Shown here piece after piece: positions 10,338-26,207 of a stretch of DNA of 64,000 nucleotides. The DNA lies in assembly GCF_057098645.1 (NCBI RefSeq), contig NZ_CM169472.1; one strand, 5' to 3'. Both the position numbers and the translations under genes were made by a program. Below the pieces are notes generated by a model. The model was not told the DNA's origin. It saw only the letters and a list, made by a program, of their open reading frames with translations, and made no database searches. The number at the start of each line of letters is the position of its first letter. The first letter of the stretch is position 1.

Positions 10338-10910
10338 TTACACAGACTGACGTGATGCCAGTTGCGCACTTTTACGCGAAAAAATCATGTTCTGCGCAGG
10401 GGTGAATTTTTCACGGCTGTCATCCACCGAAGCCGCGTCAGGCCTGAATCCGATGGTCGTTAAAATGTCGCTATCCTGTGCGGAATAATTAATTTTTTCA
10501 CCCTTCGCAAGCCAGGACAGGAGGGCTTCACGCAGGGCATCTGTGGCACGCTGTATGGCACAGTTTCGGGCAATGGCCGTCAGCTCACTGTAGCCCATCA
10601 GCTCCGGTGCCAGTGCCGCCGCCAGTGCTGTGCCGTGCTGCTGCATAAAATCATTCAGCCGATCGCGGATGCTGATGTGCTGAACGGCTTCATGCGAACG
10701 AATATAACGACCGGCGGCCTGATTCACCTGCCATTTTCTGACTTCGATAATATTGCGTAATTCGTCCAGGCGACTGACGTTTCTGCCTTCTCCTGACAGA
10801 AGCCGCAGATATTCCTGTTCGGCCGCAGCCAGCTCATTTTTGCGTTGCAGCCATGCTGCTTTGTTATTCTGACAGGTGTCAAAGGCCTGCTGTAAGGCTG
10901 TGCTTTCCAT
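10338..10910 (-). CDS. psu: P4 Psu-like polarity suppression / capsid decoration protein
   Basis: 190-aa ORF MESTALQQAFDTCQNNKAAWLQRKNELAAAEQEYLRLL...; size and position (last gene of the sid-delta-psu operon, next to cos) match P4 Psu. Confidence 0.8.
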   Translation of the reverse strand: MESTALQQAFDTCQNNKAAWLQRKNELAAAEQEYLRLLSGEGRNVSRLDELRNIIEVRKWQVNQAAGRYIRSHEAVQHISIRDRLNDFMQQHGTALAAALAPELMGYSELTAIARNCAIQRATDALREALLSWLAKGEKINYSAQDSDILTTIGFRPDAASVDDSREKFTPAQNMIFSRKSAQLASRQSV

Positions 10911-10983
10911 CGTTATCTCTTTCTCATCATGCTGAAGAATAAAAATACGGTGTGCGGCGACGGCCGGGGTTAACCGGCAGCCC

Positions 10984-11484
10984 TCATTCCAGACGCAGCG
11001 AATATGATTGTGTTTTTAACCGTACTGGCGGCAGTTCCTGTTTTTCATGCAGGCTTTCTGCCAGTTCGTCCGGCGTGACCGGGCGGACAATGAAGCGGTT
11101 GATGGTCTGAAGCGTTTTAAACACCAGACCACAGCCCGGATCCGTGCACACATAAAAACGCTCGGTGACTTCCTGAGACAGACGCCGCGATGTTCTTGAC
11201 AGCGCAAGGCCTTTACATCTCCGACAACAATATCCGGTAACAAGCATTCTTTTCGGGCGCTTCATGCTACCGGAGGCTGACGTCAGTGAATCGCGGTATC
11301 TCTGTTTGCCTGAAATGTATTCCATTCCTGAATCTTTACAGTCAGAGAAAAAGCTTTCACTCGCTTCAAATGTCGCAGAGCAATAAATATTCCGGCACTG
11401 TGCAATCATTATCTTGGTGCCATCGTCCATGAAATGTGCGCGACGGGTGTGAGCAACATGTCCACACGACGGGCAGTAAATCAT
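10984..11484 (-). CDS. delta: P4 Delta-like zinc-finger late-gene transcriptional activator (Ogr/Delta family)
   Basis: 166-aa ORF MIYCPSCGHVAHTRRAHFMDDGTKIMIAQCRNIYCSATFEA... with two Ogr-type CxxC..C..C zinc-finger repeats; overlaps sid stop (ATGA). Confidence 0.85.
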   Translation of the reverse strand: MIYCPSCGHVAHTRRAHFMDDGTKIMIAQCRNIYCSATFEASESFFSDCKDSGMEYISGKQRYRDSLTSASGSMKRPKRMLVTGYCCRRCKGLALSRTSRRLSQEVTERFYVCTDPGCGLVFKTLQTINRFIVRPVTPDELAESLHEKQELPPVRLKTQSYSLRLE

Positions 11485-12215
11485 GACAGCAGTCCTCTGG
11501 CCTTAAGCACTGCTCCCTGCTGGTCTATTTTGTCCTGCCACACCTTGCGCTGTGCCGGTGTGCCTGCCACCTCATAATCCATGTGCGGGAGTGTTGCCGC
11601 TGACAGTCCGGTCAGCCGGAGAACCGGCTCGCCGGTGAGGCTGATTTGCATCTGTTTTATTTTCTGTTCCAGCGATGATTTCACCTGCTGCATGACAGCT
11701 TTATCGGGTGCGACGTAGCCCTGATGCCCGGTGGTGTTGGCGAGCGGATTTTCCTGTACCAGAATGCTCAGATGCATTGCCCGGACAAGCGCCTCACAGG
11801 TTTCATTCAGGGCGTGTTCCAGCTCATGCTCTGCATACAGACTCAGAAGGTGATGATGTGCCTTCCGGTAGGCGGTGGCCGTGCTGTCACACGCCCCTTT
11901 CAGGCGTTCACGTTCGAAATTCAGCACCACGGCCAGATTGTCATATTCCTGTACCAGCTCCCGGCGTGCCACGCGCTCAATGTGGCGCTGTTTCAGCTCG
12001 TCGCTCAGGACACCACCGGCTGCACGAAAGGCCGTGCGCCAGTCGTCAGCGTCGTTTCCGTCGGCCTGCGCCAGCGCATTTTTTTCCTGCTCTGCCCGTT
12101 CAATGGCCGTGACGGTCTCATCCATCAGTCGGGCGTTCTCAAGGTGGGCGGCTCTGGCCTTTTCCAGTTGTGCCAGTGCGGGTTGCAGATATTCAGGGAT
12201 GGTGTTGTCAGACAT
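11481..12215 (-). CDS. sid: P4 Sid-like capsid size determination protein
   Basis: MSDNTIPEYLQPALAQLEKARAAHLENARLMDE..., about 244 aa, coiled-coil-rich; first gene of the sid-delta-psu operon. Confidence 0.8.
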   Translation of the reverse strand: MSDNTIPEYLQPALAQLEKARAAHLENARLMDETVTAIERAEQEKNALAQADGNDADDWRTAFRAAGGVLSDELKQRHIERVARRELVQEYDNLAVVLNFERERLKGACDSTATAYRKAHHHLLSLYAEHELEHALNETCEALVRAMHLSILVQENPLANTTGHQGYVAPDKAVMQQVKSSLEQKIKQMQISLTGEPVLRLTGLSAATLPHMDYEVAGTPAQRKVWQDKIDQQGAVLKARGLLS

Positions 12216-12287
12216 TTTCCGGCTCCTCGTCACTTCAGGTTAAGAAAATTGTGACGTACACCGGACAACAACACGACGCATTGCAGA

Positions 12288-12305
12288 TGTGCCAGCCCTG
12301 ACACA
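12288..12305. promoter_or_regulatory. TGT-N12-ACA dyad; candidate Ogr/Delta activator site of the sid late promoter
   Basis: tgtgccagccctgacaca matches the P2/P4 late-promoter activator consensus TGT-N12-ACA; centre about 80 bp upstream of the sid start codon. Confidence 0.5.
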
Positions 12306-12384
12306 GGAGACTCATCCTCAGACCGGCAAGCCAGGAAAAGGTCGCAGGAAAAACCGGCTTACTGTTTGTTTTTTTATATTTTAC

Positions 12385-12478
12385 TGTTCACCTCTGTTCA
12401 CCATAAGAAAAAAGATAAGTAATACAGTAAGTTAAATGGTGAACAATCGCAGTAATGACTGTTCACCGTCTGTTCACC
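12385..12478. repeat. Cluster of TGTTCACC octamer iterons (P4 ori-like)
   Basis: Five copies of TGTTCACC or its complement within 95 bp (12385, 12395, 12438 reverse, 12460, 12471); P4 alpha protein binds this octamer at ori and crr. Confidence 0.6.
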
Positions 12479-12756
12479 CGTTGATGGACTTTTTGTGCTG
12501 TTTACTACTGTTTATTTTTATTAATTCACTGAAATAAATAAGAAAAAACAATTTGTATTTCACTATAATTTTTTCCAGCTCCTTCCAGAGCGTTTTAAAG
12601 CTATCTGGCGCTGATATACAAAAAATGCACAGCCATTGTAAGGCTGCCGGAACAAATCCCCCCTGTTGCGTCTGCCAAAAATATTCACAAAATAAAGCGC
12701 TACCCGAAGCCGGACGGACTTATCCGGTGCTGTATGGACATTAACGAGGTAGCCCG

Positions 12757-13023
12757 ATGCAAGCTGTTTTTTCTTCCCCGTCTCCCGCCCCTGTGACGCC
12801 ACTGATGCCGCTGCCGGACATCACGCAGGAGCGTTTTTTACGTCTGCCGGAAGTGATGCACCTGTGCGGCCTGTCACGCTCGACCATCTATGAACTCATC
12901 CGTAAGGGGGAATTTCCGCCGCAGGTGAGTCTTGGCGGTAAAAATGTGGCCTGGCTGCACTCTGAAGTCACCGCATGGATGGCCGGACGCATTGCCGGAC
13001 GCAAACGGGGGTACGACGCATGA
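12757..13023 (+). CDS. AlpA/Vis-like small DNA-binding regulator
   Basis: 88-aa ORF containing [27 protein letters not shown], an AlpA/Vis-type HTH. Confidence 0.6.
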
Positions 13024-13610
13024 TAGTGCCCGCTCTGCAAAAACTCCCTTTTTCTGGCTTGCCTTTTTCCGGCATTTGCGGATATAGTTTTTCCGCTGCC
13101 GCAAAATCGGCAGCCGGGCGTGAGAACCCGTGTAGCTCGAAGGCGACATATGACGCGCCATGCGTCTTTTTTTGTGTCGCAATCAACGCCACAGAGCGCC
13201 AGATTATGGTGTGGCGTGTGGTTTGCCGTGCAGGTATGATCCTGTTCGCAATCGCATGTTATGCCACTGAGTCAATGGTAGCTCAGGCGGGGCAGCCTCC
13301 GGGCTGGCCGGTATTCTTCGAGGCCGGTATTCTCACCCCCGTCTGGGCTATCGCCATCGAGCGTGAGAACTCCGGCGATAGCAGTTATTTGCTACTCGAA
13401 GGAGGCTGCCTTATGGCTACAACCCTTACCCCCTCACACCCTGAATTTGTCTTTGTGTTTGCGGCTGTCCGTCGCGCAGACCGTCATCCCCGTATCTGCA
13501 TGCTTCGCACCGTCGCCGGTGATGAACGCAGCGCCCGCCGTTCCCTTGTCCGTGACTATGTGCTCTCCCTTGCTGCCCGTCTGCCGGTGGTGGAGGTGTC
13601 CCGTGCGTAA
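13020..13610 (+). CDS. Hypothetical protein of the P4-like element
   Basis: 196-codon ORF whose ATG overlaps the vis-like stop (ATGA coupling); no recognisable motif. Confidence 0.35.
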
Positions 13611-13915
13611 TAAAAGCCCCTCAGACCGTCTCAGCGCGTCATGACGCCCGTGAACACCTCAGCATTGAGGCTTACCATAAGCTCAACCGCGCCAGCGCCG
13701 TATCCCGGTTTGTTGCAAAATGGCATCTGAATCGATCGCAGTTTGGCATTCGAATCGATCATGATTTGGCATCCATCTCCGATCACAGTTTGGCATCACA
13801 ATCGATCACGATTTGGCATGCTTCCGATCATTGATTGGCATCCTGCCAGTCACTCCGGGAATTAACTCTTTTCACCACAGTCTCCATTGCCGTGTTTAAA
13901 CCAGTGGAGACGTCA

Positions 13916-15481
13916 ATGTCCAGAAAGAGAAAATCCAGGAGCACTATGGAAACCTGTTTTAAGATCCTTCAGCTCAAGTTCGACAAGAAGCTGACTAACC
14001 GTTGTATCGGACTGACGTTACACATCAGCGCCTCAACCGTTTTTGAGGTTCTTGCCCGCTTCAAAGCCTCTTCTCTGTCATGGCCATTACCTGCTGATAT
14101 ATCCCATGACACGCTGGAGAAACTCATTTTTCCGCCCAAAGACACCTTTGCATCAGAGCTTGTAATGCCTGACATGTTGTACTTCGATACGGAAATGAGA
14201 AAACCAGGTGTGACGCGGCAACTGTTGTGGATGGAATACAAGGCACAGGCGGGTAACAAAGCGATGGGATACTCGCACTTCTGCCGTTGCTACCGGGAGT
14301 GGAAAAAAACGCGACGTCTCTCCATGCGCCAGGAGCATCGTGCCGGCGAAAAGCTTTTTATCGACTTCTGTGGTCCTACGGTTCCTGTTATTAATCCGGA
14401 CACCGGTGAGATACGCCGCGTGGCAATCTTCGTGGCCGTAATGGGGGCGTCCAACTATACCTACGTTGAAGCGTGCGAAGGTCAGGACATGATGTCATGG
14501 TTAAATGCCCACAGCCGTTGCCTGACCTTCCTGGGCGGCGTACCGAAGCTGCTCATCCCCGATAACCTCAGAAGCGCAGTGAAAAAGGCCGATCGATATG
14601 AGCCTGTCATCAACGACAGTTATCAGGCACTGGCTGAGCACTATGGCACGGTTATCATCCCGGCCCGACCACGCAAACCTAAAGATAAACCAAAAGCAGA
14701 AAACGGCGTCCTCATCGTTGAACGATGGCTTCTTGCCCGCATCCGTAATGAAACCTTCCACACGCTCAGGGCGCTGAATGCGCGCCTTAGGGAGTTACTG
14801 ACAGACATGAATAACCGGCCAATGAAGGGGTACGGCAATCAAACCCGTGCAGAACGCTTCCGCATACTGGATGCGCCAGCACTCTCTCCGCTGCCTCTGG
14901 CACCTTATGAATACACGGAATACAAAGCTGTGAAGGTTGGCCCTGACTACCACGTTGAATATGCCCGTCACTGGTACTCCGTTCCACACGAACTGGTCGG
15001 TCAGCGTCTGTCACTGAAGGCGGGGCAGTCGGTGGTACAGCTCTGGCACAAGGGGCAGTGTGTGGCGCAACATCCGCGCAGCACACATGAATATAAACAC
15101 ACAACCAATCCGCTTCACATGCCAGAGCGCCACCGGCAGCACGGGACATGGACACCGGAACGCCTGATCGAGCAGGGAAAACGTACGGGCCCGTCCACAG
15201 GCCGGGTGGTTGAATCCATGCTGAAGGCAAAACCCCATCCGGAACTGGCTTATCGTGCAGTTCTGGGGCTGCTGGCACTTCAGAAAAAATACGGCCCGGA
15301 ACGGCTGGAAAAGGCCTGTTACGTTGCCCTGCACTATAACGCCCCTGACAGACGCTTTATCGACAATCTGCTGCGTCACCATCGGGAGAACCTGGAGCTT
15401 CCATTATCCCGCCAGGGCGAACAACATCCGGCATATGCTTCAGAGCATGAAAACCTGCGTGGTCCGGGCTACTACCACTGA
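13916..15481 (+). CDS. istA: IS21-family transposase IstA
   Basis: MSRKRKSRSTMETCFKILQLKFDKKLTNRCIGLTLHISASTVFEVL... N-terminal HTH followed by a DDE integrase-like core; GGAG RBS. The ORF track extends to 13835, but the internal ATG is the better start. Confidence 0.8.
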   Translation: MSRKRKSRSTMETCFKILQLKFDKKLTNRCIGLTLHISASTVFEVLARFKASSLSWPLPADISHDTLEKLIFPPKDTFASELVMPDMLYFDTEMRKPGVTRQLLWMEYKAQAGNKAMGYSHFCRCYREWKKTRRLSMRQEHRAGEKLFIDFCGPTVPVINPDTGEIRRVAIFVAVMGASNYTYVEACEGQDMMSWLNAHSRCLTFLGGVPKLLIPDNLRSAVKKADRYEPVINDSYQALAEHYGTVIIPARPRKPKDKPKAENGVLIVERWLLARIRNETFHTLRALNARLRELLTDMNNRPMKGYGNQTRAERFRILDAPALSPLPLAPYEYTEYKAVKVGPDYHVEYARHWYSVPHELVGQRLSLKAGQSVVQLWHKGQCVAQHPRSTHEYKHTTNPLHMPERHRQHGTWTPERLIEQGKRTGPSTGRVVESMLKAKPHPELAYRAVLGLLALQKKYGPERLEKACYVALHYNAPDRRFIDNLLRHHRENLELPLSRQGEQHPAYASEHENLRGPGYYH

Positions 15482-15497
15482 CAGAAGGAACAACAGT

Positions 15498-16253
15498 ATG
15501 AGTGATAACCTGTTAAACAAACTGACCCAACTGAAACTCCCGGCGATGGCCGGGAGCCTGATACGGCAGCGGGAAACGCCTCAGACCTACGACGAACTGT
15601 CGTTCGAGGAAAGGCTGACGCTGCTGGTTGATGACGAGCTTCTGAGCAGGGAAAACAGCCGTGTGGCACGGTTGAGAAAAAATGCCGGCCTGAAATACCA
15701 GGCAACACCGGAAGGGCTGCGCTATCCGGCCTCAAGAGGTCTGCGGGCTGAACAGATGAGAGAACTGCTGAACGGCCACTACATAACCCACAGGAAAAAC
15801 CTGCTGATAACCGGTCCGACAGGATGTGGCAAGAGCTGGATAGCCAATGCGCTGGGCGAACAGGCATGTCGACAGAAACACAGCGTCCGGTACTGTAGAA
15901 CCGGGCGATTACTGGAACAACTGGCTCAGGGACGTGTTGATGGCAGCTGGCTGAAATATCTGAAACAGTTGCAAAAAATACAGGTTCTAATCCTGGACGA
16001 TCTGGGGCTGGAACAGTTAAGTAACGCCCAGTGTAATGACCTTCTGGAGCTCATAGAGGATCGTTACGGACAAAGCAGCACGATAGTGGTAAGCCAGTTC
16101 CCGGTAGATAAATGGCATGGTCTGATGGAGAACCCAACAACAGCAGATGCCATCCTGGACAGACTGGTACATAACTCACACCGAGTGGTCCTTCAGGGAG
16201 AGTCACTGAGGAAAAATCCCCCGGTAGTGGAAAGCAGCGAAAAAACGCGTTAA
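15498..16253 (+). CDS. istB: IS21-family helper ATPase IstB
   Basis: MSDNLLNKLTQLKLPAMAGSLIRQRE...; Walker A GPTGCGKS and Walker B ILDDLG. Confidence 0.85.
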   Translation: MSDNLLNKLTQLKLPAMAGSLIRQRETPQTYDELSFEERLTLLVDDELLSRENSRVARLRKNAGLKYQATPEGLRYPASRGLRAEQMRELLNGHYITHRKNLLITGPTGCGKSWIANALGEQACRQKHSVRYCRTGRLLEQLAQGRVDGSWLKYLKQLQKIQVLILDDLGLEQLSNAQCNDLLELIEDRYGQSSTIVVSQFPVDKWHGLMENPTTADAILDRLVHNSHRVVLQGESLRKNPPVVESSEKTR

Positions 16254-16525
16254 AAAGCGGTAGAAAAAGTTAAGTTCCCGGTTGATCGAATGGATGCGAA
16301 TCGCTGATCGGACTTCGATGCCAATCCGTGATCGAATAGAGCGGAATACGCAGTTTGTTGGGGGTGATTTGATTCACCGTGAACTCTCCGGCCTGCATCA
16401 GCTCTACATTCCGCATATTTTCAGTTACCTGAATGAAGATATTGATTTTGTGCTGAATGAACTGAAAGCCAAAGGCCTGTGCCGCGATTTTCTCGCCCAG
16501 CAGAAAGACCGGGGAGACAGGACGC

Positions 16526-16981
16526 ATGTTTGATTTTCCCCAGCCCGGTGAGATTTACCGTTCTGCCGGTTTTCCCGATGTGGCCGTGGTCGGCATTCTG
16601 GAAGACGGTATTCCGTGGGAAATGCCGTACCGCTGCCCGGACATTGTCTGGAACCCGTACCGCCGTAAATTCAGTATCCTTGTGCGTATCCTCGCTGACG
16701 GGCGCACCACAGACATCCCGCTGGGGCGTTTTCTGCGGGAATTTACCTGTGACCGTCCTGACCTGTTTAAACGCAGCCCCGTAAACCGGCATGCGGTACT
16801 GAAAGAAATGGCCGGAGACCCGGAATTACAGAAATGGCGGGAGAAATATCTGGATATTTACCCGCAGGACCCTGTTCCGGTCAGCCGGGCGGCACCGGTG
16901 GCGCGGGAATGGCGGGAAATTCCCCGCACGGAGCCTGACCCGGAAATCACCCCGGATAACAGTTACCGCAATTATCTGTAA
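16526..16981 (+). CDS. Conserved hypothetical protein of P4-like elements (151 aa), upstream of alpha
   Basis: ORF MFDFPQPGEIYRSAGFPDVAVVGILEDGIPWEMPYRCPDIVWNPYRR...; ATG overlaps the stop of a short upstream frame (ATGTTTGA). Confidence 0.5.
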   Translation: MFDFPQPGEIYRSAGFPDVAVVGILEDGIPWEMPYRCPDIVWNPYRRKFSILVRILADGRTTDIPLGRFLREFTCDRPDLFKRSPVNRHAVLKEMAGDPELQKWREKYLDIYPQDPVPVSRAAPVAREWREIPRTEPDPEITPDNSYRNYL

Positions 16982-17116
16982 TTAAAAAACGACACCCGAA
17001 AAATTAAATGTGCGTATTCGCGCAGGGATACGCACGTCTTCAGGAGACGCAGATATGCCTTATCAGTTAATGCAACCGGCACGGAATGCAGTCATCTGTC
17101 ACAGGGAGGAAAACAA

Positions 17117-17437
17117 ATGAAAACACCCTTACCGCCCGTCTTACGCGCTGCCCTTTACCGTCGCGCTGTCGCCTGTGCCTGGCTGACCGTGTGCGAACGT
17201 CAGCACCGCTACCCGCATCTCACCCTTGAGTCACTGGAAGCGGCCATCGCCGCTGAGCTGGAAGGCTTTTATCTGCGCCAGCACGGTGAGGAAAAAGGGC
17301 GTCAGATAGCCTGTGCCCTGCTGGAAGATTTAATGGAATCCGGCCCCCTGAAGGCCGCGCCGTCGCTGTCCTTTCTCGGGCTGGTTGTGATGGATGAACT
17401 CTGTGCCCGTCACATAAAAGCGCCGGTACTGCACTGA
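17117..17437 (+). CDS. Small hypothetical protein of the P4-like element (106 aa)
   Basis: ORF between the 151-aa ORF and alpha; GGAGG RBS. Confidence 0.45.
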
Positions 17438-17451
17438 AGGAGAACAACACC

Positions 17452-19785
17452 ATGAAAATGAACGTAACCGCCACCGTCAGCCATGCGCTCGGCCACTGGC
17501 CGCGTATTCTCCCGGCGCTGGGGATTCAGGTGCTGAAAAACCGTCATCAGCCCTGTCCGGTCTGTGGCGGGAGTGACCGCTTCCGTTTTGATGACAGGGA
17601 GGGGCGCGGCACCTGGTACTGCAATCAGTGTGGTGCCGGTGACGGCCTGAAACTGGTTGAAAAGGTGTTTGGTGTCTCCCCGTCCGACGCGGCCGCAAAG
17701 GTGGCTGCCGTGACCGGCAGCCTGCCCCCGGCTGACCCGGCAGTGACGGCTGCCGCCGGTGCTGAAACAGACGCTGCCCGGAAGAACGCCGCCGCACTGG
17801 CACAAACCCTGATGGCGAAAACCCGTCCCGGAACCGGTAACGCCTACCTGACCCGCAAGGGCTTTCCCGGCCGGGAATGCCGGATGCTGACCGGCACACA
17901 CAGATCCGGTGGCGTGAGCTGGCGTGCCGGTGACCTTGTGGTGCCACTGTATGACGACAGCGGCGAACTGGTTAACCTTCAGTTAATCAGTGCTGACGGC
18001 CGTAAGCGCACCCTGAAAGGCGGACAGGTCAGGGGCACCTGTCACACCCTTGAAGGACAGAATCAGGCCGGAAAACGTCTGTGGATAGCGGAGGGATACG
18101 CGACCGCACTTACCGTACATCACCTGACCGGTGAAACGGTGATGGTGGCGCTTTCTTCCGTGAACCTCCTTTCTCTGGCCAGCCTTGCCCGGCAGAAGCA
18201 TCCGGCCTGTCAGATTGTCCTTGCCGCAGACCGTGACCTCAGCGGTGACGGCCAGAAAAAAGCCGCCGCAGCCGCAGATGCGTGTGAGGGCGTTGTTGCC
18301 CTGCCGCCGGTCTTCGGTGACTGGAATGATGCCTTCACGCAGTACGGCGGGGAGGCCACCCGTAAGGCCATTTACGATGCCATCCGGCCACCGGCTGAAA
18401 GCCCGTTCGACACCATGAGCGAAGCAGAGTTTTCCGCCATGAGTACCAGCGAAAAGGCCATGCGTATCTATGAGCATTACGGCGAGGCGCTCGCGGTTGA
18501 TGCCAACGGCCAGCTTCTGTCCCGTTATGAAAATGGTGTCTGGAAGGTGCTGCCGCCACAGGACTTTGCCCGGGATGTGGCCGGGCTGTTTCAGCGTCTG
18601 CGCGCGCCGTTCTCCTCCGGGAAGGTGGCCTCCGTGGTGGACACCCTGAAGCTGATTATTCCGCAGCAGGAAGCCCCCTCCCGCCGCCTGATTGGCTTTC
18701 GTAACGGCGTGCTCGACACGCAGAACGGCACGTTCCACCCGCACAGTCCGTCACACTGGATGCGCACCCTGTGCGATGTGGATTTCACCCCGCCGGTGGA
18801 CGGTGAAACGCTGGAGACCCACGCCCCCGCGTTCTGGCGCTGGCTTGACCGTGCCGCCGGTGGCCGTGCGGAAAAACGCGACGTGATTCTGGCCGCACTG
18901 TTTATGGTGCTGGCAAACCGCTATGACTGGCAGCTCTTTCTGGAGGTGACCGGTCCCGGCGGCAGCGGCAAAAGTATCATGGCCGAAATAGCCACCCTGC
19001 TGGCCGGTGAGGATAACGCCACGTCGGCCACTATTGAGACGCTGGAATCCCCGCGTGAACGTGCCGCGTTAACTGGCTTCTCACTGATACGCCTGCCGGA
19101 CCAGGAAAAATGGAGCGGCGACGGTGCCGGACTCAAGGCCATCACCGGCGGCGATGCGGTGTCCGTGGACCCGAAATACCGGGATGCGTACTCCACGCAT
19201 ATCCCGGCGGTGATTCTGGCCGTGAACAATAACCCGATGCGCTTCACCGACCGCAGCGGCGGCGTGTCACGCCGGCGGGTGATTATTCACTTCCCGGAAC
19301 AGATAGCCCCGCAGGAGCGCGACCCGCAACTTAAGGACAAAATCACCCGCGAGCTGGCGGTCATCGTGCGTCACCTGATGCAGAAGTTCAGCGACCCGAT
19401 GCTCGCCCGGTCACTGCTTCAGTCCCAGCAGAACTCAGACGAGGCACTGAACATCAAACGGGATGCCGACCCGACGTTTGATTTTATCGGCTATCTGGAA
19501 ACCCTGCCGCAGACCAGCGGCATGTATATGGGGAACGCCAGTATCATCCCGCGTAATTACCGTAAATACCTCTATCACGCCTATCTGGCCTACATGGAGG
19601 CAAACGGCTACCGGAATGTACTCAGTCTGAAAATGTTCGGGCTGGGGCTGCCGGTGATGCTGAAGGAATACGGGCTGAATTACGAGAAGCGCCATACCAA
19701 ACAGGGGATACAGACCAACCTGACGCTGAAAGAGGAAAGCTACGGCGACTGGCTGCCAAAATGTGACGACCCTGCAACAACCTGA
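17452..19785 (+). CDS. alpha: P4 alpha-like primase-helicase
   Basis: 777-aa ORF; N-terminal zinc-binding primase region (CPVCGGSDRFRFDD..WYCNQCG), central P-loop GPGGSGKS; same length as P4 alpha. Confidence 0.85.
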   Translation: MKMNVTATVSHALGHWPRILPALGIQVLKNRHQPCPVCGGSDRFRFDDREGRGTWYCNQCGAGDGLKLVEKVFGVSPSDAAAKVAAVTGSLPPADPAVTAAAGAETDAARKNAAALAQTLMAKTRPGTGNAYLTRKGFPGRECRMLTGTHRSGGVSWRAGDLVVPLYDDSGELVNLQLISADGRKRTLKGGQVRGTCHTLEGQNQAGKRLWIAEGYATALTVHHLTGETVMVALSSVNLLSLASLARQKHPACQIVLAADRDLSGDGQKKAAAAADACEGVVALPPVFGDWNDAFTQYGGEATRKAIYDAIRPPAESPFDTMSEAEFSAMSTSEKAMRIYEHYGEALAVDANGQLLSRYENGVWKVLPPQDFARDVAGLFQRLRAPFSSGKVASVVDTLKLIIPQQEAPSRRLIGFRNGVLDTQNGTFHPHSPSHWMRTLCDVDFTPPVDGETLETHAPAFWRWLDRAAGGRAEKRDVILAALFMVLANRYDWQLFLEVTGPGGSGKSIMAEIATLLAGEDNATSATIETLESPRERAALTGFSLIRLPDQEKWSGDGAGLKAITGGDAVSVDPKYRDAYSTHIPAVILAVNNNPMRFTDRSGGVSRRRVIIHFPEQIAPQERDPQLKDKITRELAVIVRHLMQKFSDPMLARSLLQSQQNSDEALNIKRDADPTFDFIGYLETLPQTSGMYMGNASIIPRNYRKYLYHAYLAYMEANGYRNVLSLKMFGLGLPVMLKEYGLNYEKRHTKQGIQTNLTLKEESYGDWLPKCDDPATT

Positions 19786-19792
19786 CCCACCT

Positions 19793-19817
19793 GACCGGCA
19801 TCTGCCGGTCTTTTTTT
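19793..19817 (+). terminator. Intrinsic terminator downstream of alpha
   Basis: gaccggc-atct-gccggtc hairpin followed by TTTTTTT. Confidence 0.7.
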
Positions 19818-19830
19818 ATCCCGACATCCC

Positions 19831-20125
19831 CCGAAGGTGAACAATCCACTGTTCACCCTTCACCGTATATTCACCCGTTATCACACTGAAATTAAAAGAG
19901 AAAAACGAAAGGTGAACAGTGTGAACAATCAAATCAAAAAAAACTTTTTTCTCCCTGCGTGATTTTCAGTGCAGGGGACTAATCGCCGGTATGAGTCACA
20001 CCGGCAGAATACCGGAGGTGAAGAATCGAATGTTCACCCTTCACCCATTATTCACCACCTATCATACTGAAATAAAAGGAGAAAAAAGAAAGGTGAACAG
20101 TGTGAACAGTTCTTTCGAAAAAAAA
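19831..20125. repeat. crr-like region: two direct repeats of about 110 bp, each with TGTTCACC/GGTGAACA octamers
   Basis: Near-identical units at about 19831-19945 and 20015-20125 (..ggtgaa..aatgttcacccttcacc..tcatactgaaataaaaggagaaaaa..aaaggtgaacagtgtgaaca..). Confidence 0.6.
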
Positions 20126-20321
20126 TTTTTTATGTGGATAAAAGATGCACTGGTTTGGATCCGAGCTACGGATCCAAACTTACTGATTAAAAATGATTTA
20201 ACTTTCCGATTTATTGATGGGCTGAAAATAGATTGGTCAGAAAAACAGTGGGGGCACAAAAGGGGGCATATTTCATTGTTGTGTTTTATTATTTGTTTTT
20301 TATCATTAACTTATTTTGATG

Positions 20322-20343
20322 TTTGAGTCCGGCCTTCGCACCA
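20322..20343 (+). repeat. attR: partial duplicate of the leuX 3' end
   Basis: tttgagtccggccttcgcacca versus leuX ttcgagtccggccttcggcacca. Confidence 0.7.
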
Positions 20344-21020
20344 CACCGTATGCAAATCGAGTCGCTCAAGGGCGGCTTTTTTTGTGTCTGAAATCACCCA
20401 TATCCGTGCAGTATATAGGCCTGCCAGAAAAGCAGTTCAGTATTCTTCATTTTGTAGTCGATGGTCCCAAGTTTGCTCTGGCTGGAAGCTGCATCGTCCA
20501 CATTACGTGGGCAGGGTGGTTTCGCTATGCTACTTGAACGTTTTGACCATGTGGCTCAGGTAGCTAATATCAAAAGACGTCATTTTGTCTCCACGCCCAC
20601 CTTGGTGAACATTCAATAAATAGTTTCGGTCGAGAGCAGTTATGTAGGGCTAGCAGACGAGATGCGCAGACATCTTGTTGAAGACAATTATACTGACCAC
20701 CTGAGAACGCTATTCTACCGAATAATATTTATTATCTTGGCGAATAATGATGATTACCTGTGTAACTATGGTTTTATGCTGATGGGACCGGCAGTACAAT
20801 TTCTGTAGTGTACTCGCAATTTCAGATCTCTGGCGTTTATTCTGGTGCAAAGGAGGTATGTGATGAAAACTTTGCTACCATGCCATTAAATGCGACCAAT
20901 ATCGGATTATCCATCAGTTGCTTGTCGTAGATTTCATTGGTTATAAAAATGCAAGGTGTAAAAGATGAAATTTATAATTATTAGTTAAGTGGCTAGTTTT
21001 ATAGTAATTTAGACAATAGG

Positions 21021-23069
21021 ATGTATGGAAAAATGGAAAAAGTTTATGATACCACTAGAATTAGTAATCTTGCTAACGACCCGAAACAGTTTTGTTCTTT
21101 TTTTTGTGAGTACATAAAAAGAGATGATATTAGTATAGATATCGCCTTGGATGTGCTGAGAATATCTTCCATCTATTATAATAGATTTTCAGTTCAGACT
21201 GAAGTTGAGTATAACAATACATTCAAAAAATGTATTAATGAGCTAGTAAACTCATTTCCTGATAACATTGAACTAATTTCTGAGTTCGAGAGTCAATGTA
21301 AAATTATGCATGATATAAATAATTCTTTCTTTGCGGCTACAAAATGTGCTGGTATTTGGCGTGAAAATACAAAAAAATCACATGCATTAATACTTAATCT
21401 CATCATGTTTTGTGAGATGTTTTTATCATCATTATCATCCTTGGTTGTGGTCAATGATCCTAAAAAAATGAAGAGGATTTTTCCATTATTTATCGTTTCT
21501 GAAAATATTAATATTCATGCTGAACCTGATATCGAATATTTTCGAGTTATCGATAGGGCATTTGATGAGGTAGCCAATTACACCGGAAGAATATTTTCTT
21601 ATTTACGGACTCATGAGCCATTGAAACTAACTTCTTGTGTGAATAAACAAACCTTGCTTTCAATGGGAGGGTACCTTAATGAGTGGAATGTTTTTGACTC
21701 ATTAAGCAGAGTAAGAGACTTTTTCAGACTAAGTAGTGCAGTATTTACAAAATTGGATAATAACATTTACTCTCTTGAGGTTGATAGTTTTTGTTTATAC
21801 CGAGATTATGAGATTGCAAGAAATAGACTAATGATGAGAGCGTCACATCTATATAGCGAAGTTCATGAATTTAGTAACAAACATTTTCATCTAAATAGTT
21901 GGGTAAAGGATCATATGCCATCTTACTTAAATTCTGATGGCGTTTTTAGCTCATTTCATCTAAGCGAGTTGGAAAATATGTCTCCTGATGACCTTCATGA
22001 AGAATATGGGAATATATCATTATTTAATTGGGTGCACGCTTATCAATGTTTAGTCGAGTTATCTAAAGAAGAAATGAGCAAAAGATTTTCATCGACAAAA
22101 CCTATACCCCTACAGTTGGATCGCTGGCTGATCATAAAAAGCCGTGAGAGTTGGTTATCATTCTTTCAACGTAAGGGGATTGCAGCAGATGCAGCAAAAA
22201 AACTGATAGATTATTTTACCTTCAATTCAAAATCACATGATCTTAATGATTGCCCATTTATTCCCTGTATGGACGGTTTATGCTTAATGCCTGCATTCAT
22301 AGCAAATAGCTCAGTGACTCGCTCTCTAATGTCATTATTTGGTTCCAAAAAAATTTCTCAAGCAAGTAAAGGGCGATTTCATGAGCAACAATTTATAAAA
22401 CAAGTTCGTGATGCGGGGATTAAAGCTTCTCCAATTGATGCTCATGCTAATTATCAGTGCGATTGCGTGATTCTCCTGGATGATTGTTTGATTTTTACAG
22501 AACTAAAATCAAATGGTCAACCAATATATTATGGTAAGTACTATCAGCAAGTGTGTAACATCGTTGGAGATAGCTCATTAATACATGATCATAATAATAA
22601 ATTTATGCGTTCTTATTTTCAACAAATAAATCGAACTTCTGAACATTATCTTAATCATCTTGATGTGATCATTAAAGAATTCGAACTACCATCAACATGG
22701 CAACCCAAAGGTGTGTATAAGCTTATTGTTACTACAACTATGCTCGGTGGGAAATATCATGTGGATGATACATATGTAGCGGACAAATATGCATTATCTA
22801 GTTTTTTTCAACGAATACCTGGAGTGATATATCAAACAAATGAAAATGGAGAAATGGCGAAAAATATCATTGATGGGTTTGAGTGTTGCGAAGGGGAAAT
22901 CACTATCGATAAGTTTATAGATTATCTTTCCTCTTTGCCCGGTATTAATGCTGTACGTAAAAATATACAAAAATTAACTTATAGTGTTCGATTTAATGAA
23001 AAACTAGTCCATCACCCTTATTATGATTCTTGGGCTTTTGGCCCATATATTCGTAAGGGAAATGATTAG
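21021..23069 (+). CDS. Hypothetical 682-aa protein with a possible PD-(D/E)xK nuclease-like motif; orphan accessory gene
   Basis: Long AT-rich ORF; no housekeeping similarity recognised; QCDCVILLDDCLIFTELK segment resembles a PD-(D/E)xK core; strong terminator immediately downstream. Confidence 0.5.
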   Translation: MYGKMEKVYDTTRISNLANDPKQFCSFFCEYIKRDDISIDIALDVLRISSIYYNRFSVQTEVEYNNTFKKCINELVNSFPDNIELISEFESQCKIMHDINNSFFAATKCAGIWRENTKKSHALILNLIMFCEMFLSSLSSLVVVNDPKKMKRIFPLFIVSENINIHAEPDIEYFRVIDRAFDEVANYTGRIFSYLRTHEPLKLTSCVNKQTLLSMGGYLNEWNVFDSLSRVRDFFRLSSAVFTKLDNNIYSLEVDSFCLYRDYEIARNRLMMRASHLYSEVHEFSNKHFHLNSWVKDHMPSYLNSDGVFSSFHLSELENMSPDDLHEEYGNISLFNWVHAYQCLVELSKEEMSKRFSSTKPIPLQLDRWLIIKSRESWLSFFQRKGIAADAAKKLIDYFTFNSKSHDLNDCPFIPCMDGLCLMPAFIANSSVTRSLMSLFGSKKISQASKGRFHEQQFIKQVRDAGIKASPIDAHANYQCDCVILLDDCLIFTELKSNGQPIYYGKYYQQVCNIVGDSSLIHDHNNKFMRSYFQQINRTSEHYLNHLDVIIKEFELPSTWQPKGVYKLIVTTTMLGGKYHVDDTYVADKYALSSFFQRIPGVIYQTNENGEMAKNIIDGFECCEGEITIDKFIDYLSSLPGINAVRKNIQKLTYSVRFNEKLVHHPYYDSWAFGPYIRKGND

Positions 23070-23092
23070 AGCAATTTATTATATAGTCCATG

Positions 23093-23134
23093 TTATTCAC
23101 TGATTATATTATTGATAATATAATCAGTGAATAA
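23093..23134. terminator. Long perfect hairpin between the 682-aa gene and downstream minus-strand ORFs
   Basis: ttattcactgattatatta-ttga-taatataatcagtgaataa followed by a T7 run. Confidence 0.65.
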
Positions 23135-23691
23135 CTCTAATTTTTTTAATGTTGGGGGGTAGCCTGAAATTGAAATTGGTACTACGGAACGGTATGATCA
23201 TATCGCATCAAAATATCAAGGTAGTGATGATTTTCTACGCAACGATCCAGAAACGTGGATTTTATCATCACCATAAGCAATGGCAGCGACAACACCATCA
23301 ATTTCTATATCAAAGGTGGTGAAATGAATTAGAAAATTGTTTATTTAATCCATTAGCGATAAGTTTTATTGTTATTTAGCCGAGATATATTCCATTGAAA
23401 AAAGTAAATTGGCACTGATATTATATCAAATGGGAATAATCCTTTTGTAAATAAGCTGAGGAATGTGTTAATTCACATCCAGCGCCTTATAAACCGCATC
23501 AACCGGTTCTGAGTAAAAACTTACCTGAAACTTGGTAAACAACTCTGCCGGAACTGTTGGAATATCCATAGCCGAGGATATCGGCAACAGAACACGTTTT
23601 GCGCCGCTATCGAAGGCGAGTTGTAAACTAGCGGCAAGATCCTGCACTGATTATGTCAGCAATATTGAACATACTGCGATAGTTATCAACC

Positions 23692-24564
23692 TCACCCCCT
23701 AAAAACCTCTTTCCGATGCCACTCTACAAACACCTCATAAGGGTAATTTTTACGCACCTGCGGCAACGTAATAGTTTTCCCGTCAAAATCCCAGAATAAT
23801 CTCTCAACGATCCCTCCGCCGTTTACCGCATCTGATACCAGTACCCGCATATTTTCGTCCAGGCCAATCGATCCTTTATCAAAGGCTTTATGGTGAATTG
23901 CGCAAAGCGCCAGGCCATTAGGAATTTCACAAGGACCGCCGTGCTGTTTCCATTTTATATGCGCCGCTTCCAGCGCGACGGTGGTGTCGTCGTGGCGCAT
24001 ATTAAAGCCACATATCGCGCACTGGTAGTTATAAGCGCGTAATACATTTTTGCGAAATAACGGGTCGCGCTGTTTACGGATTTGCTGGAGATCAAAACCC
24101 AGCTCGTCAGCGATTTCTTCCTGAATACTCTCGGTGAAGTGCGCTTCGAGTATCTGTTGCGCCAGAGTATTGATGAGTTTTTTATTGCCGATTACCAGGG
24201 CGTAGTGCTGTTCATCGAAACCGCCTGCAACGTGGTATTCGTTCAGTTCCTTCACTGGCGGTTGTCGGCTGCTCCCTGCTGTTGAGCAACGCTCGGCATT
24301 GTGTAATTGCCAGAATCCGTCGCCTTGTAATCGCCAGAACGGCATATCAGGTCGGTACTGTGAACGCTGTGGCCCAAAACGTTCCAGTAAACTGTGCAGA
24401 GGTTCGTAGATTTCCGATCCATAATCGAAAAGGCGCGGATGTCCATTCAGGTATCCCGCTAATACGTATAGCAGTAACAATGGTTTATGCGGCGCGCGCT
24501 GTTCACCCTTGTGCCAAATTTTTATGTTGGCAATTGCCTGCTGTAGCGATTTACTGGAAGCCAT
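23692..24564 (-). CDS. HNH endonuclease-domain protein with an N-terminal domain of unknown function
   Basis: C-terminal HNH motif YNYQCAICGF...ALEAAHIKWKQHGGPCEIPNGLALCAIHHKAFD; start chosen at MASSKSLQQ (ATG 24562-24564). The ORF track allows an N-terminal extension to 24720 that overlaps the nanM-derived fragment. Confidence 0.7.
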   Translation of the reverse strand: MASSKSLQQAIANIKIWHKGEQRAPHKPLLLLYVLAGYLNGHPRLFDYGSEIYEPLHSLLERFGPQRSQYRPDMPFWRLQGDGFWQLHNAERCSTAGSSRQPPVKELNEYHVAGGFDEQHYALVIGNKKLINTLAQQILEAHFTESIQEEIADELGFDLQQIRKQRDPLFRKNVLRAYNYQCAICGFNMRHDDTTVALEAAHIKWKQHGGPCEIPNGLALCAIHHKAFDKGSIGLDENMRVLVSDAVNGGGIVERLFWDFDGKTITLPQVRKNYPYEVFVEWHRKEVFRG

Positions 24565-24641
24565 TGATATCCCAGGCAGTGAAATAATTGCAATCATGCT
24601 CGCAAATTTTCTGCTGTTCAAGCCTGCAAGTGAAGATCCAT

Positions 24642-24914
24642 TGCTGTGTTGAGGGATCAAAAGACAACAAAAACTTATTGAAGAAATAATCTTCTGCTTT
24701 TTTGTCGAAATAATAGGCATTGATCTTGTCTATAGCTGCTAAATATTCTCCAGCCTCGTTGAGATCTTCAAAATAGCCATTGAAGATGTTCTGGTTAACA
24801 CCGCCAGTAACATAAGCCTTGCCGCTGTGTACAAAAGTCACATTACCCGCCATGCCCATCGGCGCGTGCGACATCAATTTATTGTTTTATTCATTGTGAC
24901 TGTCTCCTGTCTAC
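24642..24914 (-). pseudogene. Rearranged nanM fragment (internal codons fused to the nanM 5' leader)
   Basis: About 240 bp nearly identical to nanM 57959-58200 (MSHAPMGMAG..FDPSTQQW) joined directly to about 30 bp matching the nanM RBS/leader region 58541-58573; lacks the first about 148 codons and the 3' part. Confidence 0.7.
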
Positions 24915-25103
24915 AAAGCTTTAACCTTCACCCGTATGAGGGAAGTTTTAAGTATGAGGCGAACCATAGCATATGCCTTTATACCTATTACACCATAAAG
25001 ATAGACAAGTTATGCCATAAACTACTTTTGTAATTTGAGTCACAAATCAGGGAAGTTTTATTTATCTTCCGTGAAAGTCTTAACTTTCACGGAGTGTTAG
25101 AAT

Positions 25104-26207
25104 TTACAAAGTTGCTGGCGTAAAGGCTCCGGTTTGTATTTCTTTAACCAGCTCACCCACGGTATATATTCTCCATCCTTCGACTTCGGCGGGAGTAAGG
25201 TTAACTGCAATTTTAAGGCCTGGCCATGCAGCTTCTACGGTTGCAATAATTTCATGTTCTGAGTTTTGAAGATCTAACCCAGGAACAGGAGGTTGAAAGC
25301 CTTTATGTTGCATCATATTAATATCACCATGCACTGATGGATCAGTCAGGTCATATATTTCATTCCAGGATTCTGCTTTTAATAACCCTTGTTGGGAACG
25401 TAAACGTTGAATGATAGCCATCTCAGCTTGGGTAACGAATATACCTTCGTGGAGGGGCTGTTTTCGATGGCAATCCTTGCACAGAACAAGAAGGTTTTCA
25501 TGGTGATTATCATATTTGATGCCATTTTTATGATGGACATGGCACAAGTTTTTGGCGGTTGATAAATTCACGCCACAATCATTACAAACATAATTGGCCT
25601 TTTCTCGTATTTCTTTAGATATTTCCTTCCAGTTTTCAACATACCCACTATTTGTTTTGTCATAGATACCCTTAGGCATATGACGAAAACAGGTACTATA
25701 ATCTGAAAAAAACTCATTTAATGAGAATGATTTAAAAATCTCTCTTTTTCGTTGTTTATCAATACTTCCTTTATAATTAAGTCGTTCGAGGCAATTCATA
25801 CATACCCGTAAATCAACATCCTGGCTCCGACCTGAACCATCATCAATTTCGAATAAACCATCTATGCGGTTAGTTGCATGATACCTTTCAAATCGATTTT
25901 TATGGCGCATTTCATCAAGAGTTCTGCACCAGGCAATATGAAAACGTTTTCCTTTTTCGCCATCTACGATAGCCGCATCATAACGCCCTGAATGGTCCCG
26001 AATATATAAAAGAACCTGGCGGCCATGATAAGAGATAAGCCCGCTACCAGGGTCAAGATCTTCGATACTAACTTCTTTACCCGTGGATAACTCAATATCT
26101 ATAGGATCAAAGTCAATAGGGGATTCATCCAGAAAAAAATCGACTCCTTCTGGTAACATTTTCTTCCCTAATTGAATAAGTTCTGAAAGGTCGATAGATA
26201 ATTTCAT
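25104..26207 (-). CDS. zorE: ZorE-like HNH endonuclease (Zorya type II)
   Basis: 367-aa ORF with HNH motif CNDCGVNLSTAKNLCHVHHKNG..NLLVLCKDCH; third gene of a MotA-like/MotB-like/HNH operon. Confidence 0.65.
   Translation of the reverse strand: MKLSIDLSELIQLGKKMLPEGVDFFLDESPIDFDPIDIELSTGKEVSIEDLDPGSGLISYHGRQVLLYIRDHSGRYDAAIVDGEKGKRFHIAWCRTLDEMRHKNRFERYHATNRIDGLFEIDDGSGRSQDVDLRVCMNCLERLNYKGSIDKQRKREIFKSFSLNEFFSDYSTCFRHMPKGIYDKTNSGYVENWKEISKEIREKANYVCNDCGVNLSTAKNLCHVHHKNGIKYDNHHENLLVLCKDCHRKQPLHEGIFVTQAEMAIIQRLRSQQGLLKAESWNEIYDLTDPSVHGDINMMQHKGFQPPVPGLDLQNSEHEIIATVEAAWPGLKIAVNLTPAEVEGWRIYTVGELVKEIQTGAFTPATL

Follow-up and report, generated by a model that had tools for sequence, protein, structure and literature searches.

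A P4-type ori and crr in a satellite prophage at leuX, and a variable patch beside the origin

The satellite prophage at leuX

The window, which is the whole stretch of 64,000 nucleotides analysed here, contains a leucine tRNA gene that is followed directly by a satellite prophage related to Enterobacteria phage P4. The features that define the element and its surroundings are the following.

5923-6007, plus strand: tRNA-Leu(CAA) gene, leuX (ARAGORN, Rfam tRNA match, alignment to the empty site of O145 RM9872)
5988-6007: attL core, the 3' end of leuX
6008-20343, no strand assigned: P4-like satellite prophage, 14.3 kb (BLAST to P4 X51522, empty-site comparison, Pfam)
7912-8730: EcoO109I-like endonuclease, in the int-psu hotspot
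8768-10021, minus strand: C-5 cytosine methyltransferase, in the int-psu hotspot
13082-13134: c4-a1b1 target motif (Rfam)
13095-13172: isrK-family match (Rfam)
13271-13358, plus strand: CI immunity RNA, Rfam C4 family (RF01695, 74.3 bits against a gathering score of 45)
13716-16352, plus strand: IS21-family insertion sequence (ISSso4-like; istA, istB), inside epsilon and flanked by duplicated GTTTGTTG
17117-17437, plus strand: cnr (ORF106, DUF5375), product 100% identical to P4 Cnr
17452-19785, plus strand: alpha, an intact primase-helicase-origin-binding protein of 777 amino acids (Pfam Zn_Ribbon_Prim, Toprim, D5_N, Pox_D5)
20324-20343, plus strand: attR core, which shares GAGTCCGGCCTTCG with attL and has one G fewer

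The order of the prophage is int, hotspot cargo, psu, delta, sid, ori, vis, CI RNA, epsilon (split by the insertion sequence), orf151, cnr, alpha, crr, and attR. P4-like satellites are recognised by a co-linear core of int, psu, delta, sid, alpA/vis, epsilon, and alpha (PMC8628076), and this core is complete, and in the order of P4, between attL and attR. A megablast search of positions 9000-21500 against phage records recovers P4 at 97% identity. Relative to the reverse-complemented P4 record X51522, the homology falls into two segments, with window positions 10174-13715 corresponding to 1-3564 (96.0% identity), and 16353-20343 to 3557-7547 (98.4%), separated by an insert of 2.6 kb. The element differs from P4 in its integrase region (5984-7371), which is a different allele with 83% DNA identity, and in the cargo of the int-psu hotspot. 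In this hotspot (7912-10021), a putative type II restriction-modification pair replaces the cII, beta, and gop genes of P4; an annotated type II restriction endonuclease and DNA cytosine methyltransferase are also found in the hotspot of the leuX satellite of O157:H7 TB21-1.

The att cores are duplicated at leuX (5988-6007 and 20324-20343), as in site-specific integration into a tRNA gene. The attR core reads GAGTCCGGCCTTCGCACCA, without one G that is present in attL, in the attP core of P4, and in the empty O145 site, and this deletion of a single nucleotide might impair excision. Genomes of Escherichia coli O145 are 100% identical to the right flank of the window, and the leuX site of one of these, RM9872, is empty (L003 16860-17001), with the tRNA running straight into the sequence that follows position 20343 in the window. 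Given this empty site, the limits of the prophage can be set at 6008-20343, and the recognition of the element thus fixes the extent of the 14.3-kb satellite at leuX. To the right of attR (window 21021-26207), the RM9872 counterpart, which is 100% identical over 20400-24400, carries a phosphorothioated-DNA restriction endonuclease, and type II Zorya genes and large DEAD/DEAH helicases are annotated in RM9872 beyond the compared stretch. These restriction and Zorya genes indicate that the satellite abuts a chromosomal defence island.

The insertion sequence interrupts epsilon at codon 38, between the promoters of the left operon (P_LE/P_LL) and alpha. It has terminal repeat arrays of 23 bp at 13721-13842. 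The insertion is recent, because other copies of the element in E. coli match it at 100% identity and its removal in silico restores an epsilon identical to that of P4. The CI RNA is part of the leader of the alpha-containing operon, and the immunity module detected by Rfam (13082-13358) is entirely upstream of the insertion sequence. An IS21 element is also present in the P2-like phage fiAA91-ss (L020 581-2550), directly after the C-cox operator region, at the expected start of cox, which parallels the IS21-family insertion in the satellite of the window.

The octamer repeats of ori and crr

Two groups of repeats, one beside sid and the other beyond alpha, share the octamer TGTTCACC.

12385-12478, both orientations: ori type 1 iteron cluster with five exact TGTTCACC octamers, at 12385+, 12395+, 12438-, 12460+, and 12471+ (aligned to the P4 'ori type 1 repeat')
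12403-12437: AT-rich spacer, 83% A+T (window average 52%; composition computed), separating the left octamer pair from the inverted octamer
19793-19817, plus strand: putative rho-independent terminator of alpha, GACCGGCATCTGCCGGTC followed by a T run, homologous to 'talpha' of P4
19831-19950: crr direct repeat 1, 120 nt, with octamers at 19836-, 19850+, 19868+ (TATTCACC), 19911-, and 19920- (TGTTCACA) (P4 annotation)
20012-20131: crr direct repeat 2, 120 nt, with octamers at 20017- (TCTTCACC), 20031+, 20049+ (TATTCACC), 20092-, and 20101- (TGTTCACA) (P4 annotation)

Exact copies of TGTTCACC number 12 over both strands of the window, in comparison with a mean of 1.73 and a maximum of five in dinucleotide-shuffled sequences. 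The frequency is thus well above expectation (12 against 1.7), a count reached in none of 100 shuffles. Ten of the 12 copies fall within ori and crr, and the two others (20604 and 24500) lie outside the prophage, in line with what chance would provide. A preliminary description of this DNA had noted octamers in both orientations, clustered upstream of sid, and the five copies that span exactly 12385-12478 bear this out.

The ori cluster occupies the intergenic region between sid and vis (orf88). Its octamers are spaced at 10-11 bp (12385/12395 and 12460/12471), with one inverted copy, and this combination of phased octamers, an inverted copy, and an AT-rich spacer reads as typical of iteron origins. 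The spacer at 12403-12437 would be the region of melting. Three dyads of the form TGT-N12-ACA, which we take to be the motif of Ogr/Delta-activated promoters, are found nearby, at 12250, 12288, and 12637, close to P_sid and P_LL. P4 itself has six annotated type 1 repeats between sid and orf88, whereas the window has five, which align to five of these six. The missing octamer corresponds to a clean deletion of 10 bp, equivalent to one CTGTTCACCA unit of the right-hand tandem block, and looks like a slippage deletion, the variation in octamer number resembling slippage in a 10/11-bp tandem.

At crr, five octamers are exact (19836-, 19850+, 19911-, 20031+, and 20092-) and five have one mismatch (19868, 19920, 20017, 20049, and 20101). 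The two repeats are 83% identical, with starts 181 nt apart and a spacer of 61 nt. The P4 record also has two features named 'crr 120bp direct repeat' after the alpha terminator, each with five type 1 repeats, and the crr of the window is 98% identical to this sequence, with all ten octamers unchanged and the substitutions mostly in the 61-nt spacer between the repeats. The preliminary description had placed two direct repeats of about 110 bp downstream of alpha; the position was right, but the repeats are 120 nt long. Its interval for them, 19831-20125, begins at the correct nucleotide and ends 6 nt short, at 20125 rather than 20131. An open reading frame of 111 codons (window 19991-20326, plus strand) extends over the second crr repeat and the arm region of attP, and equivalent frames that span crr elsewhere (L008 13138-13473 and L005 13238-13474) are entered in RefSeq as 'hypothetical protein', as in the RefSeq record of O157 TB21-1, where such a frame is called across crr. 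These frames drawn over crr are probably spurious calls on non-coding replication and attachment DNA.

The resemblance to the organisation of P4 ori and crr pointed out in the preliminary description proves to be direct homology, the repeats lying within the segments that match P4 at 96.0% and 98.4%. In the base-by-base alignment, five of the six ori octamers and all ten crr octamers of P4 are identical position for position, and the placement of the cluster by sid, upstream, and of the repeats past alpha, downstream, agrees with the P4 record. The octamer, the orientation pattern, and the flanking genes are the same as in the GenBank records of P4 ori and crr (X51522, X05623).

Related origins are common in E. 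coli. The ori region was found in 994 of 5426 complete genomes, always on the chromosome, with 1197 P4-like ori places in total, and none of these complete E. coli genomes has the ori region of the window at an identity of at least 99%. For comparison, P4 and nine E. coli prophages spread over the range of identity were examined, the prophages being inserted at four sites, the tRNA genes leuX, thrW, and selC, and the tmRNA gene ssrA. The octamer layout + + - + + (+) is kept in all nine prophages. The right-hand block of ori has two copies in the window and in UTAK-1, three in most elements, and four in 2012C-4227, which gives totals of five, six, and seven ori octamers, respectively. The crr pattern is kept across the elements as well, the second repeat having decayed in some of them, and 98 of the 103 exact octamers in P4 and the nine prophages fall within ori or crr.

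The conservation of the octamer goes together with that of the initiator. The origin-binding domain of alpha is 99-100% identical in eight of the nine prophages, which are those that keep TGTTCACC. The ninth, the element of E. coli G47-1 (thrW; L012 8070-8170 and 12190-12280), has an alpha of 83% identity and an origin-binding domain of 77% identity; here, the ori layout is kept, several iterons drift to TGTTCACT, and only one crr unit is visible. To judge from these sequences, the alpha domain and the iterons are conserved together, as expected of an initiator and its sites, and G47-1 may be a case in which the two have drifted jointly.

The variable patch beside ori

At about 110 bp from the type 1 cluster, the annotated ori of P4 includes three 'ori type 2' decamers. 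These are absent from the window, where the patch that holds them, alone among the parts of the annotated P4 ori, is not conserved but replaced. In an alignment of eleven elements, the patch, of 40-55 bp (window about 12569-12619; P4 L001 2407-2471), takes the form of three discrete alleles, between flanks that are more than 95% identical.

12571-12608, minus strand: Cox-operator-like array of four 10-bp phased units (allele B), in place of the P4 type 2 repeats
Allele A: 439 genomes, 480 places; P2-type cox-boxes (P4)
Allele B (window): 372 genomes, 393 places
Allele C: 247 genomes, 262 places

Together, the three alleles cover approximately 95% of the 1197 P4-like ori places in the complete E. 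coli genomes, and the alleles other than that of P4 (B and C) account for 655. In RM9872, with its empty leuX, allele A is found beside a P4-like ori at another chromosomal location (record position 4417030).

Read on the opposite strand, the type 2 decamers of P4 are CACTTAAAGT, CATTTAAAGC, and CACTTAAAGC, and contain TTAAAGTCA, TTAAAGCCA, and TTAAAGCAA, which are, respectively, zero, zero, and one mismatch from the consensus of the P2 cox-box, TTAAA(G/C)NC(A/C), phased at 10-11 bp (PMC3936717). The Cox protein of P2 binds beside the late promoter P_LL of P4, which leads to activation of the prophage (PMC3936717), and the Cox protein of WPhi neither binds the cox-boxes of P4 nor activates it (PMC5009727). 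The patch of the window differs from the P2 arrangement, with only one P2-type box, at one mismatch and in the opposite orientation.

The alleles were scored, without gaps and against a null of dinucleotide shuffles, on the DNA next to attP and between C and cox in nine P2-like phages. Allele A matches the Pe-Pc region of P2 (26 of 34 positions identical; 0 of 1500 shuffles), while allele C matches the attP side of WPhi (17 of 20; 5 of 1500) and the C-cox region of P37 (22 of 31; 0 of 1500). The best counterpart of allele B is the C-cox region of ESSI2_ev239, with 26 of 38 positions identical over four phased units (0 of 1500 shuffles). Phage 186 and SEN4, which are among the nine phages scored in this ungapped manner, match none of the alleles. 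In a set of 80 Cox loci from IMG/VR, helpers related to WPhi have a four-unit array 30-80 bp upstream of cox; allele B resembles the arrays of L050/L072 (27 of 37; 0 of 1000 shuffles) and L047 (19 of 22; 1 of 1000), and allele C that of L061 (31 of 45; 0 of 1000). By this measure, alleles B and C each appear to resemble the cox-upstream arrays of a different class of WPhi-related Cox.

The patch contains at least three directional boxes, phased at 10-11 bp, which resemble a helper Cox operator in sequence. The balance leans, by a narrow margin, towards a patch that is not a part of the origin, but a swappable helper-recognition cassette that would mimic the Cox operator of the helper, so that induction of the helper would switch on P_LL. 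With the dyad at 12637 placed at -55, the array would be some 90-130 bp upstream of the start of P_LL.

A covariation scan over the 7.7-kb core of ten elements found columns that track the alleles only at 12514-12619, together with the single columns 12242 and 12891. This confinement to the patch region indicates that the aligned core (psu to attR) holds no covarying protein or RNA partner, and no correspondence with the alleles is seen in the protein accessions of Vis, Cnr, Delta, Sid, or epsilon. The only exact direct or reverse-complement partner of the patch inside the satellite is a chance-level 10-mer in the immunity region (13195), flanked by the isrK and C4 matches of Rfam, and was set aside. 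When the patch alleles (47 nt) were compared with the phage collection by BLAST, nothing useful was returned, not even WPhi. The phage ESSI2_ev239 only marks a related class of operator. It was rejected as the helper that corresponds to allele B, given that searches in near and distant mode found its cox region in none of the 5426 complete E. coli genomes. A degenerate-pattern scan of IMG/VR recovered 17 allele-B satellites and one phage of the ev239 type, and no new class of helper.

No description of such patch alleles was found in the literature searched, although older subscription literature may already have identified the type 2 repeats as cox-boxes. Cox is not mentioned in the main survey of P4-like elements, which occur in about half of the E. 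coli genomes (PMC8628076). If the cassette reading is true, the exchange of alleles at the patch would retarget the satellite to another class of helper, and the element of the window would answer to a Cox protein other than that of P2. The patch would also become a predictor, readable from the sequence, of which P2-like helper induces a given P4-like satellite, and the 35-year-old annotation 'ori type 2 repeats' would be corrected.

The initiator and the bipartite origin

The initiator of the element is nearly unchanged from that of P4. Alpha is identical to P4 alpha at 770-771 of its 777 residues, and residues 671-770 are 100% identical to PDB 1KA8, the crystallised origin-binding domain of P4. 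The alpha gene lies between ori and crr, and the protein is thus encoded in cis. The adjacent cnr gene encodes a counterpart of the copy-number regulator of the P4 plasmid state (PMC8628076). In P4, the winged-helix domain of alpha binds the repeats at the origin, which is then unwound and primed (PMC4234260).

In the satellite of the window, the sequence identity, the enrichment of the octamer, the intact initiator, and the conserved layout were computed, and the binding of alpha to the origin is taken from the literature. The primary papers (Ziegelin 1993; Flensburg and Calendar 1987) reportedly place the binding of alpha at the type 1 octamers of both ori and crr, and crr is said to be required in cis for the replication of P4 from ori (Flensburg and Calendar 1987). 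Taken together, these lines of evidence argue strongly (with a probability of about 0.95) that the octamer sites are the bipartite replication origin, ori and crr, of a P4-type satellite prophage. The alpha protein of the element itself would use its C-terminal winged-helix domain to bind the octamers of ori and crr, and its helicase and primase domains would then open and prime the DNA at ori, by the melting of the AT-rich core and self-priming. The crr repeats would provide a second platform of iterons in cis, needed for initiation.

The position of the ori cluster, in the sid-vis intergenic region between two late promoters, and the proximity of the TGT-N12-ACA dyads would also suit operators through which a regulator, such as Delta/Ogr or Vis, controls the divergent promoters P_sid and P_LL. 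This is very improbable, however, given that the octamer recurs ten times in crr, past the alpha terminator and beside attR, where no promoter is annotated, that the dyads are separate from the octamers and do not overlap them, and that the literature assigns the origin repeats to the winged-helix domain of alpha. A dual role, in which the binding of alpha to the octamers also affects late transcription, is possible. There is even less reason to regard the repeats as a product of chance or low complexity, or as a CRISPR-like or other tandem array, a reading that has nothing in its favour beyond the presence of repeated units, and is scarcely credible. The observed octamer count exceeds that of every shuffle, and the DNA is homologous to annotated features of P4. 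A CRISPR array would have at least three near-identical repeats of about 23-55 bp, with unique spacers of similar length, and would usually be near cas genes, whereas crr has only two 120-nt copies, at 83% identity, around a single spacer of 61 nt. No CRISPR-related family appears in the Rfam scan of 5800-20500, and there are no cas genes among the neighbouring open reading frames. The preliminary description had warned that a CRISPR or repeat finder might mis-call these sequences; at its lowest threshold, Tandem Repeats Finder gives two arrays of about two copies, with periods of 9-10 bp, and calls none with a period of 181 bp, so the concern did not materialise for this tool.

A more serious alternative accepts that ori and crr are present by descent, and holds that the replicon is dead, the insertion sequence and the lost iteron having stopped it from firing, which would leave the repeats as relics. 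The ISSso4-like element in epsilon, between P_LE/P_LL and alpha, is consistent with this, as are the five ori octamers in place of six, and the deletion of one nucleotide in the attR core relative to attL. The alpha and cnr genes, crr, and the remaining iterons are, however, intact and nearly identical to those of P4, and the insertion is recent, to judge from the identical copies and the perfect epsilon obtained by excision in silico. The form with five octamers is a standing variant, found also in UTAK-1 and in two satellite contigs of IMG/VR, and the cis sites would still function if alpha were supplied in trans. On this evidence, a dead replicon is conceivable, but is the less probable state of the element. 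The replicon of the window is structurally complete, but cut off from its promoters by the insertion sequence, which also accounts for the distance between ori and crr, of 7.35 kb in the window against 4.7 kb in P4. The copy in the window could presumably still fire, which is doubtful without help, because the IS21-family element separates alpha from its promoters. As a consequence of this separation, induction may fail to bring about the expression of alpha, and the origin may in effect be silent.

The octamer cluster and the downstream repeats are the ori and crr already known from P4, and, in this sense, ordinary. Their recognition is mainly of value for the hygiene of annotation, in which the repeats should be labelled as P4 ori and crr, and not as a novel repeat or a CRISPR-like array. 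The sole unexpected feature seems to be the small neighbouring cassette, apparently swapped to suit a different helper phage, and this side result could matter more than the finding of ori and crr itself.

Within the wider range of known replicons, R6K and P1 have origins of the iteron type, with a second cis-acting cluster of iterons kilobases away. The comparison is one of analogy only. The P4-type origin shares with these plasmids the direct and inverted sites for the initiator, phased at about one helical turn, the adjoining AT-rich region, and the distant second cluster of iterons. The two kinds of system differ in the initiator, given that the Rep protein of R6K and P1 recruits the DnaB and DnaG of the host, whereas the P4 type relies on a single polypeptide that combines primase, helicase, and origin-binding activities.
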